Shown: positions 2,213-14,516, numbered from the stretch's first letter. The stretch: 64,000 nt of DNA from Ignavibacteriales bacterium (GCA_037441705.1 JBBIRR010000013.1:14073-78072), one strand, 5' to 3'. Notes: generated from the letters alone by a model not told the origin. Numbers and translations: made by a program.

Positions 2213-2770
2213 ATGAAACTGACGCCGCTGGATATTCGGAAGCAGGAATTCAAGAAAGTCCTGCGAGGCTACGACCCCGTCGAGGTGGAAACCTTCGTCG
2301 AAATGATGGCAAACGAGGTGGAGAATCTCCTGAAGGAACTGAACGACTGCCGCACAAAGGTGACCGAGCTGGAGACGCAACTCAAAGACTATAAAATGAT
2401 GGAGAAGACGCTCCAGCAAACGTTGATGCAGGCGCAGGAAACCACCGGCAAGACGTACGAAGCGGCGCGCCGTGATGCCGAATCCATCATCAAAGACGCG
2501 GAAATCAAAGCTGCGCAGATCATCAACACCGCGAATGTCGAGCTCGGAAAGTTGAACAATGAAATCGGTCAGCTTCGCTCACGCCGCGATTCTCTCATCG
2601 GACGCTTGCGCGTGCTGCTCAGCTCCGAACTGGAACTGATCAAGGCACTGGAACTGGGCAGCGACCCCATTCTTGCCAGCGACACGTCGCACGGCACGGG
2701 CAAAGCTGACCTCGATCTGGACAACATCCTCAAGGCAATGGAAAATGTCGGAACTCAGGAGCCACATTGA
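2213..2770 (+). CDS. divIVA: DivIVA-domain coiled-coil protein
   Basis: N-terminal [28 protein letters not shown] signature, then a long coiled coil. AGGAG precedes ATG 2213. Confidence 0.9.
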
Positions 2771-3566
2771 AGAGTCCGTCCGCTTCCTACGTACGAAGAC
2801 GGCGCTGCAGCCGACAATCGGGATTATTCTGGGGACGGGCCTCGGCGGACTTGCCAAAGAAATCGCACAGGAAATCGTCATCCCCTACGAACAGATTCCT
2901 CACTTCCCAGTTTCAACCGTCGAGTCGCATCATGGACGATTGATCTTCGGAACGCTGGGCGGAAAGATCGTCGTTGCGATGCAGGGACGCTTTCATTATT
3001 ACGAAGGCTACACCATGCAACAGGTCACCTTCCCGGTTCGCGTGATGAAGTTCCTCGGTGTTGATACGTTGCTCATCTCGAACGCCGCCGGCGGCATGAA
3101 CCCGCAGTTCCGTAAGGGAAGCATCATGATCATCACCGATCACATCAACCTCCAGGGTGATAATCCGCTGATCGGGCCTAACGACGATTCGCTCGGCCCG
3201 CGCTTCCCGGATATGTCCGAGCCGTACAGCAAAGCGCTCATTGCGCTTGCCGAAGAGGTTGCCCTTGATTTGAAGATCAGAGTCGAGCGCGGCGTGTTTG
3301 TGGCCGTTGCCGGACCGAACCTGGAAACGCGCGCCGAGTATCGGTTTTTGCGCTGGATTGGCGCGGACGCCGTCGGCATGTCCACGGTCCCCGAAACCAT
3401 CGTCGCGAACCACATGAACATGCGTGTGCTTGGCTTTTCCATCATCACCGACGAGTGTTTCCCCGACGCGCTGCAACCGGCGAACGTCGAGGAGATCATC
3501 GCCGTTGCGAGTGCGACCGAACCGAAACTGACGGCAATCATGAAGCGAGTTGTGGAACGATTGTAA
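2745..3566 (+). CDS. punA: Purine-nucleoside phosphorylase (trimeric type)
   Basis: Motifs [45 protein letters not shown]. Confidence 0.95.
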
Positions 3567-8879: not shown

Positions 8880-9842
8880 ATGCCGCATGATGTCGAGATC
8901 ATAGTACCGCCGGGCAAGAAGAAGGAGCGGATCGACGTCTTTCTCACGCACCACATCGAAAACGCGACGCGTAACAAGGTTCAGCAGGCTATCGAACGCG
9001 GCTTGGTTCTGGTAGATGGAAAGAAGGTTCGATCAAGCCATCAGCTCACAGGCGGAGAAGTTATTCACGTCACGCTTCCTCGCCCCGCGCCGCTACGAGC
9101 ACAGCCCGAGAACATCCCGCTCGACATTCTGTATGAAGATGACGACGTGTTAGTCGTCAACAAACCTGCCGGGATGGTTACGCATCCGGCGCACGGCAAT
9201 TACACCGGGACATTGGTCAACGCTCTCCTCTACCACTGCAAGCAGCTCTCCGGCGTGAATACGGAATTACGTCCCGGGATTGTTCACCGACTGGACAAGG
9301 GTACATCCGGTTTGATGGTCATAGCAAAGACCGATACGTCTCACACGGTCCTCGCCCGGCAGTTTGCCGAGCGGACAATCGGTCGGGAGTATTGGGCGCT
9401 GGTCTGGGGGACGTTCAAAGAGACATCCGGAACAATAGAAGCGGAGCTTGGGAGAAGTAAGTCGGACAGAAAGAAAATTGCCGTCGTGCTCGGCGGCAAG
9501 CATGCCATCACCGAGTATGAAGTCATCGAGCGGTTTGCCTATCTCACGCTTGTGCGTCTCCGTCTCCGAACCGGCCGCACGCACCAGATACGTGTGCATC
9601 TCGCTCACATCAATCATCCCGTGTTCGGCGATCCTACCTATCACGGGCGCCGAATAGTCGCAGGCCCGGGCACGGTACAGCAGAAGGCAGAAGTGCATGC
9701 CCTCCTTCAGCTCATAAGCAGACAGGCACTGCACGCCAAGACCCTTGAATTTACCCATCCGAAGACAGGAAAGCGCCTGTCGTTCGATTCGCCCTTACCT
9801 GCCGATATTTCGGCAGTTTTAGCGCATTTGCGGGGCAGCTAA
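8880..9842 (+). CDS. rluD: RluA/RluD-family pseudouridine synthase with S4 domain
   Basis: VNKPAGMVTHP, GIVHRLDKGTSG, TGRTHQIRVH, RQALHA. Confidence 0.94.
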   Translation: MPHDVEIIVPPGKKKERIDVFLTHHIENATRNKVQQAIERGLVLVDGKKVRSSHQLTGGEVIHVTLPRPAPLRAQPENIPLDILYEDDDVLVVNKPAGMVTHPAHGNYTGTLVNALLYHCKQLSGVNTELRPGIVHRLDKGTSGLMVIAKTDTSHTVLARQFAERTIGREYWALVWGTFKETSGTIEAELGRSKSDRKKIAVVLGGKHAITEYEVIERFAYLTLVRLRLRTGRTHQIRVHLAHINHPVFGDPTYHGRRIVAGPGTVQQKAEVHALLQLISRQALHAKTLEFTHPKTGKRLSFDSPLPADISAVLAHLRGS

Positions 9843-9875
9843 GAAAGTTACCTTTCTGTGTTGCCTATCACCTAC

Positions 9876-9904
9876 TTGTACCTCTGCTTTTTGTTTTTTA
9901 TGTT
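9876..9904 (+). promoter_or_regulatory. Sigma70-type promoter of the duplicated barrel/lipoprotein unit
   Basis: TTGTAC(9876-9881)-N17-TATGTT(9899-9904) in an AT-rich intergenic stretch. Confidence 0.55.
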
Positions 9905-10060
9905 AGTCGTAAAATTCAGCGGAGATTCTACGCTCAACCTCCGAGATAAGCTCTGGGAACCGCACGTCGAAATCCATCCCCCAAAAGGGAATCGGTTCCA
10001 AGCTCCGAAGGTCGGCTATACCACACGTTCAGATTCCTGTTAGAAGCTTAACCCCACACT

Positions 10061-10978
10061 ATGAGAAGAATTGCGGTCGCGACGGGCATCAGTCTCCTCG
10101 CGATGAGCGCAGGTAGCAATGCAGTGTTTGCCCAATCGCAACTTGAATTGGCAGTCCAACAGTTCCGCTCCAGCGAAGTAGTCGGATACATCCAGCCGCT
10201 GGGGGACCTGTTTGGCGCCAACATGAATGCCGGCCTGTATCACTCGGCGGCCATCCCGAGGGACGGCTTTCACATTCGCATCGACGTTGTCGGAGCCATC
10301 TCGCTCATAGGCGAGCAACACAAAGTGTATGATGCAACTCTTCCGGAAGGATTCGTTCCCCGGGGCGGATCATACCAAACAGCAACGGTGTTCGGCGGAC
10401 GGGGAACGACGTTCAAGGACGCCAATAGCGGACTGGAGTATAAGGGATCGGATGGAATTGTGAGACTGTCTGCATTTCCCTTACTCGTTCCCCAACTCAC
10501 CATCGGAAGTTTGTTCGGAACCGAGGCTACATTCCGGTTCATGAAAACTCCCCAGCTTTCACAACAGTGGTTCCCGACAAAGTCTACTCTCCTTGGCGTT
10601 GGCGTCCGGCATAGCATCAGTCAGTACATCCGTAACGCCGCAGTGGATGTTTCCATCGGTGCATTCTACTCAACATTCACGCTCGGCGATATCATCGACT
10701 TCACAGCCCGGGCAGTGAACGTGAGCATTAGTAAGACGGTTTCCCTTTTCACACCGTATGTAGGCCTTGGGTACGAACGAAGCACAATGCACCTTCACTA
10801 CGACTTCAAGGGCGAAGGGGGCCAGTATCCAAGACTCGTGGATGTTGTGATTGAAGGCGCAAACCGGTTCCGGGTTACCGGTGGCTTTATGATTGATCTT
10901 CAAGCAGTGCACCTGTTCGCCGACGCAAACTTCGGGAATGTGCATCATTATTCAGGCGGATTCGGATTCGGGTTTTAG
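10061..10978 (+). CDS. Outer-membrane beta-barrel protein, DUF6588-like (copy 1)
   Basis: Sec signal ending AVFA-Q; GYIQPLGDLFGANMNAG, PQLTIG, GVGVRHSISQY; amphipathic strands; C-terminal GFGFGF. Family name is from recall. Confidence 0.75.
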   Translation: MRRIAVATGISLLAMSAGSNAVFAQSQLELAVQQFRSSEVVGYIQPLGDLFGANMNAGLYHSAAIPRDGFHIRIDVVGAISLIGEQHKVYDATLPEGFVPRGGSYQTATVFGGRGTTFKDANSGLEYKGSDGIVRLSAFPLLVPQLTIGSLFGTEATFRFMKTPQLSQQWFPTKSTLLGVGVRHSISQYIRNAAVDVSIGAFYSTFTLGDIIDFTARAVNVSISKTVSLFTPYVGLGYERSTMHLHYDFKGEGGQYPRLVDVVIEGANRFRVTGGFMIDLQAVHLFADANFGNVHHYSGGFGFGF

Positions 10979-11017
10979 GTCGATTTGTAGCAATGATTGC
11001 GTGAAAGGACACTCCCC

Positions 11018-11572
11018 ATGAAGTGGAGCAGCATGGTTGCCGCAGCCCTTCTTTCCCTCTCGACGCTCGGTTCATCTTGCGTGAACGAAGGGGCCACCAT
11101 TTCTATCAATCTGAAGCCCATCATCGGGCGATACAGAGTGGGCACATCGACCACGTTCGGCGGTCTCATCACCGTAAAGCTCGATAGCCTCGTGGACGCA
11201 GAGTATAAGACCAAGATTCGCCAGGGGCGTGTGTACGATCTCCGCGTGCGGGTTGAGGGGGATTACCCGGGTTCCGTCTCGGGTTTTGCAGCCGTGCGGA
11301 TACGGGATGGCCAGATAAAGCAGATCATCCGATTCCCTCGCGATGGTACCGTGGCCTGGTCGTCATTCCACACAACACAGTCACTTCTTGCGAAATCGCC
11401 GTACTTGGTGCCCGAACCGGAAGGAATCAATGAGTTACTTTCAGCACTCACCCAAACGCCTCTCCCGGACGTCTCGGTCTTGTCCTTCGGGACATTAAGT
11501 ATTGCTCCTGTGCCTGCTAATTTGTATGTTATCGTCGAGGTTTATCTGCAGGCTGACGCTGAGTTAAACTAA
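11018..11572 (+). CDS. Uncharacterised lipoprotein (copy 1)
   Basis: MKWSSMVAAALLSLSTLGSS-C lipoprotein-type signal; paralogous to 12726..13244. Confidence 0.75.
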   Translation: MKWSSMVAAALLSLSTLGSSCVNEGATISINLKPIIGRYRVGTSTTFGGLITVKLDSLVDAEYKTKIRQGRVYDLRVRVEGDYPGSVSGFAAVRIRDGQIKQIIRFPRDGTVAWSSFHTTQSLLAKSPYLVPEPEGINELLSALTQTPLPDVSVLSFGTLSIAPVPANLYVIVEVYLQADAELN

Positions 11573-11771
11573 ATCTCCCCTTACCAGACGGCATCGTTTA
11601 CGTGCCCGGGGGTAAACCGCGATTCGGTTCTTGTCAAGACATCTTTCGGGGGAGGGCGTCCTTTCTCCGCTTCGTTTCTTTCTCGGGGGCATTCACGTCT
11701 GAGATTTGCAACGTGTTGTTCTGATCTTCAACCTGACTCATCACCCTTATCAACAAAAAAGGAGAGTACAT

Positions 11772-12674
11772 ATGCTGTTGCTACACACGGTGGCAAAGAA
11801 ACGCTTGCTGGCAGGATTCGTTCTTCTTCCTCTGCTCGTCGGTTCAGGACGCGCGCAGTCGGATCTGGAGAAGATCATTCGTCAGCAAGATGCCGAGAAC
11901 GTGAAGGGCTACGTTCAACCCATTGCGGACCTCTTCGGCGCGAATATGAATGCGGGCTTCATTCGCAATGCGCGGATCCCCGAAACCGGATTCAACATCC
12001 GCTTCGACATCATCGGAATGGTCGGCCTCGTGAGTTCCGATCAGGAAACCTACATGGCGCAAGACCCGTGGGGAGGGAAGTTCCAGACGGCAACGATCTT
12101 TGGCAAGAAAGGCGGCTCAAGTCCGAACCCTCTTGCACCGACGGATACCACGCAGGCCTTCCGCGGCTCCGACGGCCTCTTCAGCACCAGCATTTTCCCG
12201 TTTGCAACGCCACAACTCACCATCGGTCACATCTTCGGGACGGAAGCAAGCATCCGGTACGTTCCCATTCCGGAAATCAGCAAGCTTCCCAAGATCACGC
12301 TCTTCGGCATCGGCGTGCGTCACAGTATCAGTCAGTACTTTGATGCTTTTCCTGTGGATCTCGCAGCCGGCTTCCTTTACAATAGCTTCACTGTCGGCGA
12401 TATCATTTCTGTCAAAGGATACGGCTTCACGCTGCAAGGAAGCAAGGAACTCACCATCCTTGTTCTCTACGGAGGAGTTCAGTTCGAGAAATCCACGCTG
12501 ACGCTTACCTACACTTCCACGGTCAGCGGCAACGTGAATGTGGAATTGGAGGGCTCCAACGTTGTGCGTGGCGTTGTTGGTGCAGGCTTGAATCTTGGCT
12601 TCCTCAAGATTTTCGCCGATGCAAACTTTGGTGCCATCACCAGCTTTTCGGGCGGCATCGGTTTTGGATTCTGA
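11772..12674 (+). CDS. Outer-membrane beta-barrel protein, DUF6588-like (copy 2)
   Basis: AAGGAG before ATG 11772; signal ending GRA-Q; GYVQPIADLFGANMNAG, PQLTIG, GIGVRHSISQY; C-terminal GIGFGF. Confidence 0.78.
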   Translation: MLLLHTVAKKRLLAGFVLLPLLVGSGRAQSDLEKIIRQQDAENVKGYVQPIADLFGANMNAGFIRNARIPETGFNIRFDIIGMVGLVSSDQETYMAQDPWGGKFQTATIFGKKGGSSPNPLAPTDTTQAFRGSDGLFSTSIFPFATPQLTIGHIFGTEASIRYVPIPEISKLPKITLFGIGVRHSISQYFDAFPVDLAAGFLYNSFTVGDIISVKGYGFTLQGSKELTILVLYGGVQFEKSTLTLTYTSTVSGNVNVELEGSNVVRGVVGAGLNLGFLKIFADANFGAITSFSGGIGFGF

Positions 12675-12725
12675 CATCGATCGAGTCTTTTTATCAATCC
12701 CATACTAAACCTTAAGGAGTATGTC

Positions 12726-13244
12726 ATGAAAGTGAAGCTTGTGTTGGGTTTACTTGTCGTCGCGCTTACCACCATGGGATTTGATTGCGTGAATGACAAC
12801 GCATTGATTTCGGTGAACATCCCCGGCTTAACCGGGACCTTCCGCATCAATCCCGGTGGTACCTCATTTGACGAGACCGTGACCGTTCATTCTTCTGACT
12901 ACCTGGACATCGGGTTCGAGGACTACAACCTGAATTCTCTGCGCGTGTACGATATCCGCGTCAGCACCATCGGATCGTTCGCCGGGAACGTCACCGGCCA
13001 GGTTCTGATCAACGGGCAACAACTGCTTTCCTATAACGGACCATGGAACAGTTTTAACACACCCCAATCGCTTGTCACATCAACGCTCATTACGCGCAAC
13101 GCCGGCGGCGTCGCAGCGCTTCTCTCTGCAATCAGGAACAAGCAAGATGTGGCGATACGCGGTTTTGGAACCGTCTCGCAAACCGTTCCCAGCGGTCTTG
13201 CCGTGCAGGTAGAAATACTTGCCCAGGTTGATGCGGCGCTGTAG
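12726..13244 (+). CDS. Uncharacterised lipoprotein (copy 2)
   Basis: AAGGAG SD; MKVKLVLGLLVVALTTMGFD-C signal; beta-rich; paralogous to 11018..11572. Confidence 0.78.
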   Translation: MKVKLVLGLLVVALTTMGFDCVNDNALISVNIPGLTGTFRINPGGTSFDETVTVHSSDYLDIGFEDYNLNSLRVYDIRVSTIGSFAGNVTGQVLINGQQLLSYNGPWNSFNTPQSLVTSTLITRNAGGVAALLSAIRNKQDVAIRGFGTVSQTVPSGLAVQVEILAQVDAAL

Positions 13245-13267
13245 AAGGTCCTCGCGCCACAAATGTG

Positions 13268-13302
13268 AAGCCTCCGGCTGCGTCACCGGAGGCTTTTCTG
13301 TT
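13268..13302 (+). terminator. Intrinsic terminator closing the barrel/lipoprotein unit
   Basis: AAGCCTCCGG-loop-CCGGAGGCTT followed by TTCTGTT. Confidence 0.85.
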
Positions 13303-13324
13303 CGAATGGCGACGGCAGCAATTG

Positions 13325-13353
13325 TTGAATCCCTCAGGCATCTTTTGTAGATT
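13325..13353 (+). promoter_or_regulatory. Sigma70-type promoter of rlmN-adk-GDPD
   Basis: TTGAAT-N17-TAGATT, ending 8 nt before the rlmN ATG. Confidence 0.6.
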
Positions 13354-13361
13354 GCCCGTGC

Positions 13362-14516
13362 ATGAGTGCACCACGAACGAACATTCTGGGTCTCACCCTC
13401 CTCGAGTTATCCGATTTTGCTGAACGCTTGGGCGAAAAACGCTACCGCGGGAAGCAACTCTTCGATTGGCTGTACACCAGAGGCGCCGACTTTTTCTCCG
13501 AGATGACGAGCCTTGCCAAAGTGTTTCGCGAAAAGCTGGAGGCGGAGGCCTGCATCGAACGCATCAGCATTGTCCGGCAGCAACGCTCGTTGATAGACGG
13601 CACCACGAAGTTTCTCATCGGGCTGAAGGACGGGTTGCATGTGGAAAGTGTGCTGATTCCTCCGCGCCGCTCGTTCAGTGATGACGGAGCGGCCTCGGAA
13701 GAAGAGCAGCGGCGGCTTACGCTGTGCATTTCGAGTCAGGCGGGCTGCCCGCTGGAGTGCGCCTTTTGCGCAACGGCAACGATGGGATTCCTCCGGAATC
13801 TGTCTGCAGGAGAGATCGTTGATCAGGTCTTACAGATTCGACGCGTAGCACATCGCCCCATCACCAATGTGGTGTTTATGGGAATGGGCGAACCGATGAT
13901 GAACTACACACACGTCATGAACGCGGTGAATATTCTCACCAACGGACTGAACATCGCAGCACGGCGCATTACTATCTCCACCGCAGGCTGGGCGGATCGA
14001 ATTCGGCAAATGGCCGATGACGGTTGCAAAGCAAAGCTGGCCGTCTCGCTGCATAGTGCCGTGGATGAGACACGCACCAGACTGATGCCCATTACAAAAA
14101 AATTCCCGCTCAGAGAGCTCCTGGCTTCCCTGCGCTATTACCACGAAAAGACGCGCAAGCGCGTCACGTATGAACACATCTTTTTCGACGGCATCAACGA
14201 TACCGATGTCGAAGTGGACCGGCTGATTCGATTTGCCCGGCACGTCCCGTGCAAGATCAATATCATTCCCTTCCACTCGATCGCCTTTGCCGGTGTGCAC
14301 GGTACCGGGGCAGCGCTGCGCCCCTCCCCCCGCATGCATGAGATTGCCGACCGCCTGCGTGCTGCCAACCTGACCGTATTCATTCGCAGCAACGCAGGAG
14401 AGGATATTGATGCGGCATGCGGGCAGCTTGTTGTGAAGACGCAGCGAGAACAACCACGGCGTGCGAGGCTTTCCGTGCGCAGCACGTCGCGCTCACCGCA
14501 ACGCCTTCCGGCCTGA
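13362..14516 (+). CDS. rlmN: 23S rRNA m2A2503/tRNA m2A37 radical-SAM methyltransferase
   Basis: LCISSQAGCPLECAFCAT (CxxxCxxC), FMGMGEP, LAVSLH, DIDAACGQL. Confidence 0.96.
   Translation: MSAPRTNILGLTLLELSDFAERLGEKRYRGKQLFDWLYTRGADFFSEMTSLAKVFREKLEAEACIERISIVRQQRSLIDGTTKFLIGLKDGLHVESVLIPPRRSFSDDGAASEEEQRRLTLCISSQAGCPLECAFCATATMGFLRNLSAGEIVDQVLQIRRVAHRPITNVVFMGMGEPMMNYTHVMNAVNILTNGLNIAARRITISTAGWADRIRQMADDGCKAKLAVSLHSAVDETRTRLMPITKKFPLRELLASLRYYHEKTRKRVTYEHIFFDGINDTDVEVDRLIRFARHVPCKINIIPFHSIAFAGVHGTGAALRPSPRMHEIADRLRAANLTVFIRSNAGEDIDAACGQLVVKTQREQPRRARLSVRSTSRSPQRLPA

Follow-up and report, generated by a model that had tools for sequence, protein, structure and literature searches.

We analysed a window of 64,000 nucleotides (nt) from an Ignavibacteriales bacterium (GCA_037441705.1 JBBIRR010000013.1:14073-78072), in which positions 9876-13302 carry two consecutive copies of a gene pair, A and B, in the order A1-B1-A2-B2. 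A encodes a predicted outer-membrane β-barrel of the family DUF6588, and B encodes a small putative lipoprotein. Our preferred reading, to which we give about an even chance, is that A and B form an outer-membrane barrel-lipoprotein complex, with B as an accessory subunit and with a role for the barrel that is older than B and independent of it. A and B are co-inherited across many uncultured bacteria.

The open reading frame (ORF) listing contained all four genes on the plus strand, between the genes for an RluD-type pseudouridine synthase and RlmN, in the order given in a preliminary description of the locus. A1 and A2 were 41% identical over ~300 residues (E 8e-69), and B1 and B2 were 34% identical (E 9e-24). 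All motifs on which that description had based the paralogy of A1 with A2 and of B1 with B2 were visible in the alignments. A profile search of the whole genome (3.83 Mb, 92 contigs) recovered two A and two B genes in total, those of this module.

We observed the same A1-B1-A2-B2 order in a genome of the same genus (G001) and in two further loci, L009 and L010 (same record as G261/L075). Other genera of the family (G055, G065) carried a single A-B pair. We then compared separate trees of 26 A proteins and 26 B proteins. The upstream copies (A1-type and B1-type) of the same four genomes formed one clade each (support 100 for A, 97 for B), and the downstream copies (A2-type and B2-type) formed matching clades for three genomes (support 99 for A, 90 for B). 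The downstream copies of G001 were long branches in the trees. A Gemmatimonadaceae clade and a nine-row clade also matched between the A and B trees. Because the two trees agree, the pair appears to have been duplicated as a unit, as had been proposed. The pattern fits a single duplication of the whole A-B unit, in an ancestor common to a few genomes, followed by co-divergence. The extent to which the two copies have diverged, in A and in B alike, suggests that the two pairs are not interchangeable.

Both barrel proteins matched Pfam DUF6588 (PF20230) from end to end. Against a cut-off of 27 bits, A1 scored 132.2 bits (profile 8-319 of 319) and A2 scored 155.7 bits (profile 4-319 of 319), and this was the sole Pfam family for either protein at E ≤ 1. 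The resemblance to DUF6588 noted in the preliminary description is therefore a full family assignment. The A profile had no PDB sequence relatives at E ≤ 1. Signal peptides of A were judged by eye: A1 starts with a Sec-type signal, MRRIAVATGISLLAMSAGSNAVFA, with Q after the cleavage mark, and ends in GFGFGF. Both A proteins end in F.

An AlphaFold2 model of A2 (38-sequence alignment; predicted local distance difference test (pLDDT) 86.0, predicted template modelling score (pTM) 0.77) consisted of the signal peptide, two helices (residues 32-38 and 42-59) and ~12 strands over residues 76-300, up to the C-terminal Phe. About 45 mature residues preceded strand 1, and the strands showed the alternating hydrophobicity expected for a membrane barrel. 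An exhaustive search against known structures returned transmembrane barrels of 10-12 strands at Z 9.7-13.9, among them the Legionella Dot/Icm porin I (Z 13.9, 201 residues aligned, root-mean-square deviation 5.1), pOmpT (Z 12.3), OpcA (Z 12.2), BrkA (Z 12.0) and FapF (Z 9.7). Thus, A modelled as a transmembrane barrel, the architecture that had been proposed for it. Six autotransporter barrels (Hbp, NalP, EstA, AIDA-I, AaaA and EspP) aligned at Z 8.8-11.6, and these alignments began at A2 residue 38-45, so the N-terminal helix was covered. The A helix therefore aligns with the autotransporter pore helix, and A is probably a helix-plugged barrel. The most conserved DUF6588 motif, GYxQPxxDxFGxxxNxG, was on this helix.

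Neither B1 nor B2 matched any Pfam or NCBIfam family at E ≤ 1, and the B profile had no PDB sequence relatives at E ≤ 1. The B2 model (22-sequence alignment, pLDDT 86.1) was an all-β sandwich with one helix. Its best VIA-align matches were generic jelly rolls at Z ≤ 7.5, within the quoted background of the tool. Across the structure searches, the jelly-roll neighbours of B2 included the N-terminal domain of PNGase F (Z 7.5), viral capsid proteins, CBM35/36 and the carbohydrate-binding domain of BcsB. Foldseek matches reached a template modelling score (TM) of at most 0.38, Atlas structural neighbours were below TM 0.5, and Atlas feature matches were unnamed proteins of ~181-187 residues. Because the B2 structural matches all lay within the background range, no family could be assigned to the fold, and B matched no characterised family in the Pfam, NCBIfam, structure and PDB searches.

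B1 starts with MKWSSMVAAALLSLSTLGSS, followed by C (lipobox GSS-C), and B2 starts with MKVKLVLGLLVVALTTMGFD, followed by C (lipobox GFD-C). The Cys at the end of the signal peptide (Cys21) was invariant in 22/22 aligned B proteins. Gly44, Asp76, Gly83, Trp107, Phe110, Thr112, Gln114, Ser115, Leu132 and Gln167 were also invariant in this alignment, which makes the aromatic and polar motif W..F.T.QS an invariant feature of B. The first strand of the B2 model began at residue 27, about 5-6 residues past Cys21. With a Cys this close to the first strand, the B domain would have to sit flat on the membrane. The signal peptides and the invariant Cys agree with the lipoprotein-type signals proposed for both B proteins; the lipobox of B2 is atypical. 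Throughout the B2-type clade a conserved stretch, MGFDC or MGFNC, ended in the invariant Cys, and position -1 was thus Asp or Asn, residues rarely expected where signal peptidase II cuts. Ordinary lipoboxes in B1 and in every remote homologue nonetheless make it likely that B2 is lipidated.

To describe how tightly B is linked to A, we distinguished a strict B profile from remote homologues found through profile-profile comparison (hhalign). A search of 5.8 billion proteins gave 42 B homologues at E ≤ 1e-3, and the B profile found 125 representatives among 1.84 billion. Four large multi-stretch matches to the B profile were scanned and turned out to be PKD/fn3 repeat proteins that aligned in short segments; we took them as spurious. 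In 185,579 species genomes, A was directly upstream of B on the same strand at 16/16 B loci. In a sample of the class, B came directly after A in 4/4 genomes with a B match. Among 40 loci spanning the families of the class, nine A genes were followed immediately by a gene for a lipoprotein of 180-200 residues with a canonical lipobox. Five more families of the class had remote B homologues (lipoboxes AGC, GGC, QGC, NGC and QSC) encoded after A. Two remote lipoprotein groups matched the B profile over nearly full length in hhalign, at probabilities of 97% (E 9e-11) and 89% (E 2e-6). A third group of Gemmatimonadota type (A5) matched B at a probability of 71% over the N-terminal half and matched group A3 at 17%, which is suggestive of homology to B. 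None of the B proteins and remote B homologues found lacked an A gene directly upstream.

DUF6588 itself was far more widespread than the strict B profile. It was present in 110/151 genomes sampled in the class and in 99/201 sampled in the phylum Bacteroidota, compared to 4/151 class genomes for the strict B profile, all in the family of the window. Part of this gap within the class arises because B diverges fast. We placed the partner state on a DUF6588 tree of 79 distinct ORFs, built without the duplicate loci L001-L003, L005 and L075. The A2 of the window and the downstream A of G001 were scored by hand as having a B, since their B genes lie beyond the end of the locus. Partnered barrels made up 28/28 members of one clade (support 100) and 6/7 of another (support 97). 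The partner state changed 3 times on the tree, compared to a mean of 25.9 in shuffles (0/500 shuffles as low), and a single clade of all partnered barrels was not rejected (approximately unbiased test, p-AU 0.58). These data indicate that B was acquired by one DUF6588 subfamily and kept there. The unpartnered DUF6588 proteins included long forms (365-490 residues), tandem short-plus-long pairs and single genes of other classes. Because DUF6588 mostly occurs without B, B looks like an accessory subunit and not the reason for the existence of the barrel.

In the mechanism that we propose, A and B would leave the cytoplasm via Sec, the barrel would be inserted by the β-barrel assembly machinery (BAM), and B would be acylated and tethered in the outer membrane. 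B would then dock on its cognate barrel and serve there as an accessory subunit, either a cap or a ligand-binding module. The core function of the barrel would be older and shared with the numerous DUF6588 members lacking B. With its pore plugged, A would not be an open porin. Contact between the two proteins is favoured by the extreme shortness of the B tether and by the strict linkage of B to A.

Several observations weigh against this reading. On the DUF6588 tree, 34/79 ORFs had a B-type neighbour and 45/79 did not, so the DUF6588 barrel does not need B. The obligate partnership proposed in the preliminary description therefore stands for B, which always had A upstream, and fails for the barrel family. 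Likewise, A homologues usually lacked an adjacent B across the family and almost always had one within the two partnered clades. The locus sample was also not random: 16 loci were found through B, and short ORFs were the criterion by which a second batch was picked. Co-inheritance alone can account for conserved adjacency and for trees that match. The placement of the helix in the pore is deduced from the residues aligned to autotransporters. The Asp at position -1 of the B2 lipobox is atypical. In a crude lipoprotein screen of the genome, noisy and used only to tally the -1 residue, G, S or A occupied this position in 118/235 candidates and D in 6, and B2 was the only one of these six with a convincing signal peptide. 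Finally, the residues after the Cys do not resemble a known surface-export signal. The minimal Bacteroidetes signal is given as K-(D/E)2, Q-A-(D/E)2, SDDDD or SDDFE after the Cys, and was defined there for Capnocytophaga, Bacteroides and Flavobacterium, which belong to other classes of the phylum (PMC5080379). B2 (C-VNDN) and B1 (C-VNEG) have one acidic residue each and fall short of the signal in that form. The lack of an acidic export signal argues for a periplasmic orientation of B or for a route of its own.

We weighed three other readings of the pair. In the first, A would act in the outer membrane as an enzyme or in lipid homeostasis, similar to OMPLA, PagL or PagP, with B as a regulatory subunit or merely co-transcribed without contact. 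Fifteen residues were kept in ≥85% of both partnered and unpartnered DUF6588 proteins. Five of them are polar (Tyr48, Thr109, Gln149, Arg163 and His185, A2 model numbering), and by strand periodicity His185 would face the lipid, close to where its strand ends; both points speak for this reading. A gene for a cytoplasmic GDPD protein was also a recurrent neighbour, but synteny may be all there is to this link. Fixing the plug helix in position is an equally good explanation for the invariant residues, and no catalytic triad was recognised in A. OMPLA and PagL share an H-x-S catalytic spacing, which is absent from the A motif RHSISQ, and OMPLA, PagL and PagP were not in the best 50 structural matches of A2. 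We consider this reading unlikely.

The second reading is a dedicated export or display pair, similar to Slam and the type XI secretion system (T11SS) or to a split autotransporter, in which A would move B across the outer membrane, or thread or hold its N-terminus, for surface display. The absence of any B found without A directly upstream is in keeping with this, as is the resemblance of A, helix included, to autotransporter translocator barrels. The portion of the T11SS literature that we consulted also describes barrels encoded beside lipoprotein cargo. Since B does not have the known surface-export motif, it would require its own route if it were surface-exposed; that exposure, however, is an assumption of the reading itself. 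A has neither a DUF560 domain nor a periplasmic TPR domain, and a plugged 12-strand pore would be too narrow for a folded jelly roll. Most DUF6588 barrels lack B, so translocation of B cannot be the function of the family. Overall, we find this reading rather improbable. In its most specific form, the DUF6588-B subfamily would be a passenger-less autotransporter-like barrel that exports the neighbouring lipoprotein and holds it on the surface without the Bacteroidota export signal, in Ignavibacteria-like Bacteroidota and, after passage as a unit, in Gemmatimonadota; to this version we attach considerable doubt and little probability.

The third reading, a small uptake pair similar to SusCD or to a porin with a lid, in which B would bind a substrate, perhaps a glycan, and pass it to a channel formed by A, is highly improbable: the carbohydrate-binding domains among the structural neighbours of B (CBM35/36, PNGase F N-terminal domain, BcsB) and its invariant W..F.T.QS motif speak for it, but those matches are within background, and Pfam searches gave neither a TonB-dependent receptor or plug domain for A nor a SusD domain for B. 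In the model, moreover, a conserved helix would block the pore, and the surrounding genes (ileS, lspA, rluD, rlmN, adk) are of the housekeeping kind, none of them encoding a glycoside hydrolase or a regulator.

The complex of a barrel with an accessory lipoprotein thus remains the reading that we prefer. DUF6588 genes had other neighbours in some loci. In related families of the order, a gene for a ~900-residue protein adjoined DUF6588 in L025 (351-3131, minus strand), L026 (3977-6697, plus strand), L027 (4325-7066, plus strand) and L029 (4168-6789, plus strand). These proteins contained TPR repeats and a CHAT (caspase-like) domain in 4/4 scanned, with a lipoprotein-like signal by eye, and DUF6588 barrels may thus have another type of lipoprotein partner besides B. 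In some families of the class (L031, 2991-5044; L043, 3074-5136; L044, 2988-5265) we observed tandem DUF6588 genes, a short one (~307-375 residues) followed by a long one (~372-404 residues), without a B-type gene. This arrangement hints that the barrels may act as hetero-oligomers. In L065, from another class, a 221-residue lipoprotein-like ORF (…LLVIWGC…; 2308-2973, plus strand) that the B profiles did not detect was directly upstream of a single DUF6588 gene. Proteins with a Por_Secre_tail domain were found on the same strand directly beside DUF6588 genes lacking B: an S8 subtilase directly downstream in L039 (121-3132, minus strand) and an LVIVD-repeat protein directly upstream in L028 (4177-5859, minus strand). 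The presence of type IX secretion cargo beside DUF6588 in these two loci may be chance, such cargo being common.

The preliminary description regarded the module as inserted between rluD and rlmN. This was not what we observed. In five related loci (L011, L014, L018, L023 and L024), ileS was upstream in 5/5 and rlmN downstream in 4/5, and dksA, lspA, rluD, adk and GDPD recurred around the module. The recurrent order was ileS-dksA-(lspA)-rluD-A-B-rlmN-adk/GDPD. The position of the module between rluD and rlmN is conserved synteny. In the window, lspA is 4 kb upstream of B2, within the same gene string. Elsewhere in the class, DUF6588 genes that have no B sat right after adk-like genes (N-termini judged by eye).

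The A-B pair was also present in metagenome-assembled genomes labelled Gemmatimonadaceae (L015, L017, L019, L021 and L079-L082). In both the A tree and the B tree, the Gemmatimonadaceae pair branched inside the Bacteroidota/Ignavibacteria clade. Four of the loci with this label had a different context, with transketolase, SIMPL and PAS-GGDEF genes. DUF6588 was present in 7/101 Gemmatimonadota genomes sampled, and a lipoprotein gene followed the barrel in 5/5 genomes with a full-length match. From its placement in the two trees, it looks like the pair was transferred as a unit into Gemmatimonadota.

The features of the window are listed in Table 1. Each B gene begins 39-51 nt 3' of its A gene and would encode a jelly-roll lipoprotein of 150 residues; the gap between B1 and A2 is 199 nt. 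Two start codons differ from the longest reading frames. The listed ORF of B1 (10997-11572) opens at a TTG and encodes 191 residues, and a start at the ATG at 11018, which follows AAGGA, is likely as read by eye. The reading frame of A2 is open from a TTG at 11706 (322 residues); the ATG at 11772 follows AAGGAG and is the likely start, and the 300-residue protein that begins there was 100% identical over its length to a database protein (P0043). Pfam searches also placed adk and GDPD genes downstream of the module.

Table 1. Positions of the module, its flanking genes and its candidate signals, counted from the first letter of the window
Feature	Position	Strand	Remarks
RluD-type pseudouridine synthase	8880-9842		Upstream flank; Pfam
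Candidate promoter	9876-9904	+	Proposed in the preliminary description; inspected by eye
A1, DUF6588 outer-membrane β-barrel (predicted), 305 residues	10061-10978	+	PF20230, E 2.9e-38
B1, small putative lipoprotein, B family	11018-11572	+	34% identity to B2; B profile E 4.5e-54
Weak hairpin, B1-A2 gap	11647-11669	+	Terminator-like in the consensus scan
A2, DUF6588 outer-membrane β-barrel (predicted), 300 residues	11772-12674	+	PF20230, E 2e-45
B2, small putative lipoprotein, jelly-roll β-sandwich (model), 172 residues	12726-13244	+	Model pLDDT 86
Intrinsic terminator-like hairpin	13268-13302	+	23 nt past the B2 stop codon
RlmN	13362-14516		Downstream flank; Pfam
Lon-like protease, 916 residues	16624-19374	-	LonB-type AAA, LonC helical and Lon_C; downstream of GDPD and PNPOx genes

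The hairpin after B2 had an 11-bp GC-rich stem followed by UUUUCUGUU. It folded at -20.6 kcal/mol (z -3.70), and 0/200 shuffled sequences were as stable, in agreement with the strong terminator proposed at this position. It was absent from the list of a simple consensus terminator scan. The same scan listed the hairpin in the B1-A2 gap, which we rejected as a terminator: at z -0.87, with 39/200 shuffles folding as well, it was indistinguishable from chance. A sigma-70 scan returned no plus-strand sites across positions 9000-14000, and thus none at the candidate promoter upstream of A1. By eye, that segment reads TTG, 20 nt, TAtgTTaG, which resembles the Bacteroidota -33/-7 consensus. Its assignment as a promoter is a guess.

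These results bear on a common family. Roughly one in two of the sampled Bacteroidota genomes contained DUF6588, and yet it was named in no paper found in the literature searched. The subfamily described here adds a strictly linked, fast-evolving lipoprotein to this barrel. The duplicated, co-diverged pair is a natural experiment in specificity, in which cognate and swapped A and B proteins should differ if the two proteins touch. The assembly of barrels with lipoproteins and the delivery of lipoproteins to the surface are still being worked out in Bacteroidota-type bacteria, for which a system reduced to two genes would offer a tractable model. If the surface-display reading were true, the pair would be a two-gene route of lipoprotein display that bypasses the Bacteroidota export signal. 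If A and B do not interact, the module would be merely a conserved operon of two envelope proteins without a known role.

Among known families and systems, the closest relatives of A1 and A2 are the other members of DUF6588, an uncharacterised Bacteroidota outer-membrane family to which both belong over their full length. Compared to other DUF6588 proteins, the A1/A2 subfamily is short (293-343 residues) and has a downstream B-type gene, whereas those of other classes are single genes of ~330-380 residues without B. Type Va autotransporters (NalP 1uyo, Hbp 3aeh, EstA 3kvn, AIDA-I 4mee and EspP 8qp5) have, like A, ~12 strands and an N-terminal helix. In contrast to them, A lacks a passenger and matched none of the Pfam autotransporter families at E ≤ 1, which sets it apart from that class.

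The preliminary description had likened the pair to Slam/T11SS and to SusCD, and Pfam searches placed it in neither family. Slam and its cargo follow the same gene-pair logic as A and B, with a barrel encoded beside a lipoprotein that is never seen without it. Slam has an N-terminal periplasmic TPR domain before its barrel, whereas A2 has two short helices (32-59) before strand 1 and no Pfam TPR match, and A has no DUF560 match (Pfam, E ≤ 1). T11SS cargo lipoproteins have a TbpB-like C-terminal β-barrel domain. The model of B is one jelly-roll sandwich, and Pfam gave no match for B; a relative of the TbpB-like domain may escape structural matching. Most DUF6588 barrels, unlike those of T11SS, have no lipoprotein partner. 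In the portion of the literature consulted, T11SS is described for Proteobacteria. The pair also differs from SusC/SusD: A (300 residues) and B (all-β) had no TonB_dep_Rec, Plug or SusD match (Pfam, E ≤ 1). The genome contains one SusD homologue.

Barrel-lipoprotein complexes as such are known, and are a hallmark of Bacteroidetes according to the preprint of Silale et al. (10.1101/2025.01.31.636011). As far as our literature searches reach, the composition of a DUF6588 barrel with a B lipoprotein is undescribed. In the same preprint, the N-termini of BamF and BamG are conserved and interlock. The barrels of SusCD, BtuB-BtuG and BamF-BamG have 22 strands and TonB dependence or 14 strands in a FadL-like fold, compared to ~12 strands and a predicted helix plug in A. 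Their lipoproteins carry an acidic export signal that B does not have. In their overall plan these systems, including BamF-BamG of the Bacteroidota BAM, are similar to the pair proposed here, with an outer-membrane barrel and a lipoprotein anchored at the barrel.

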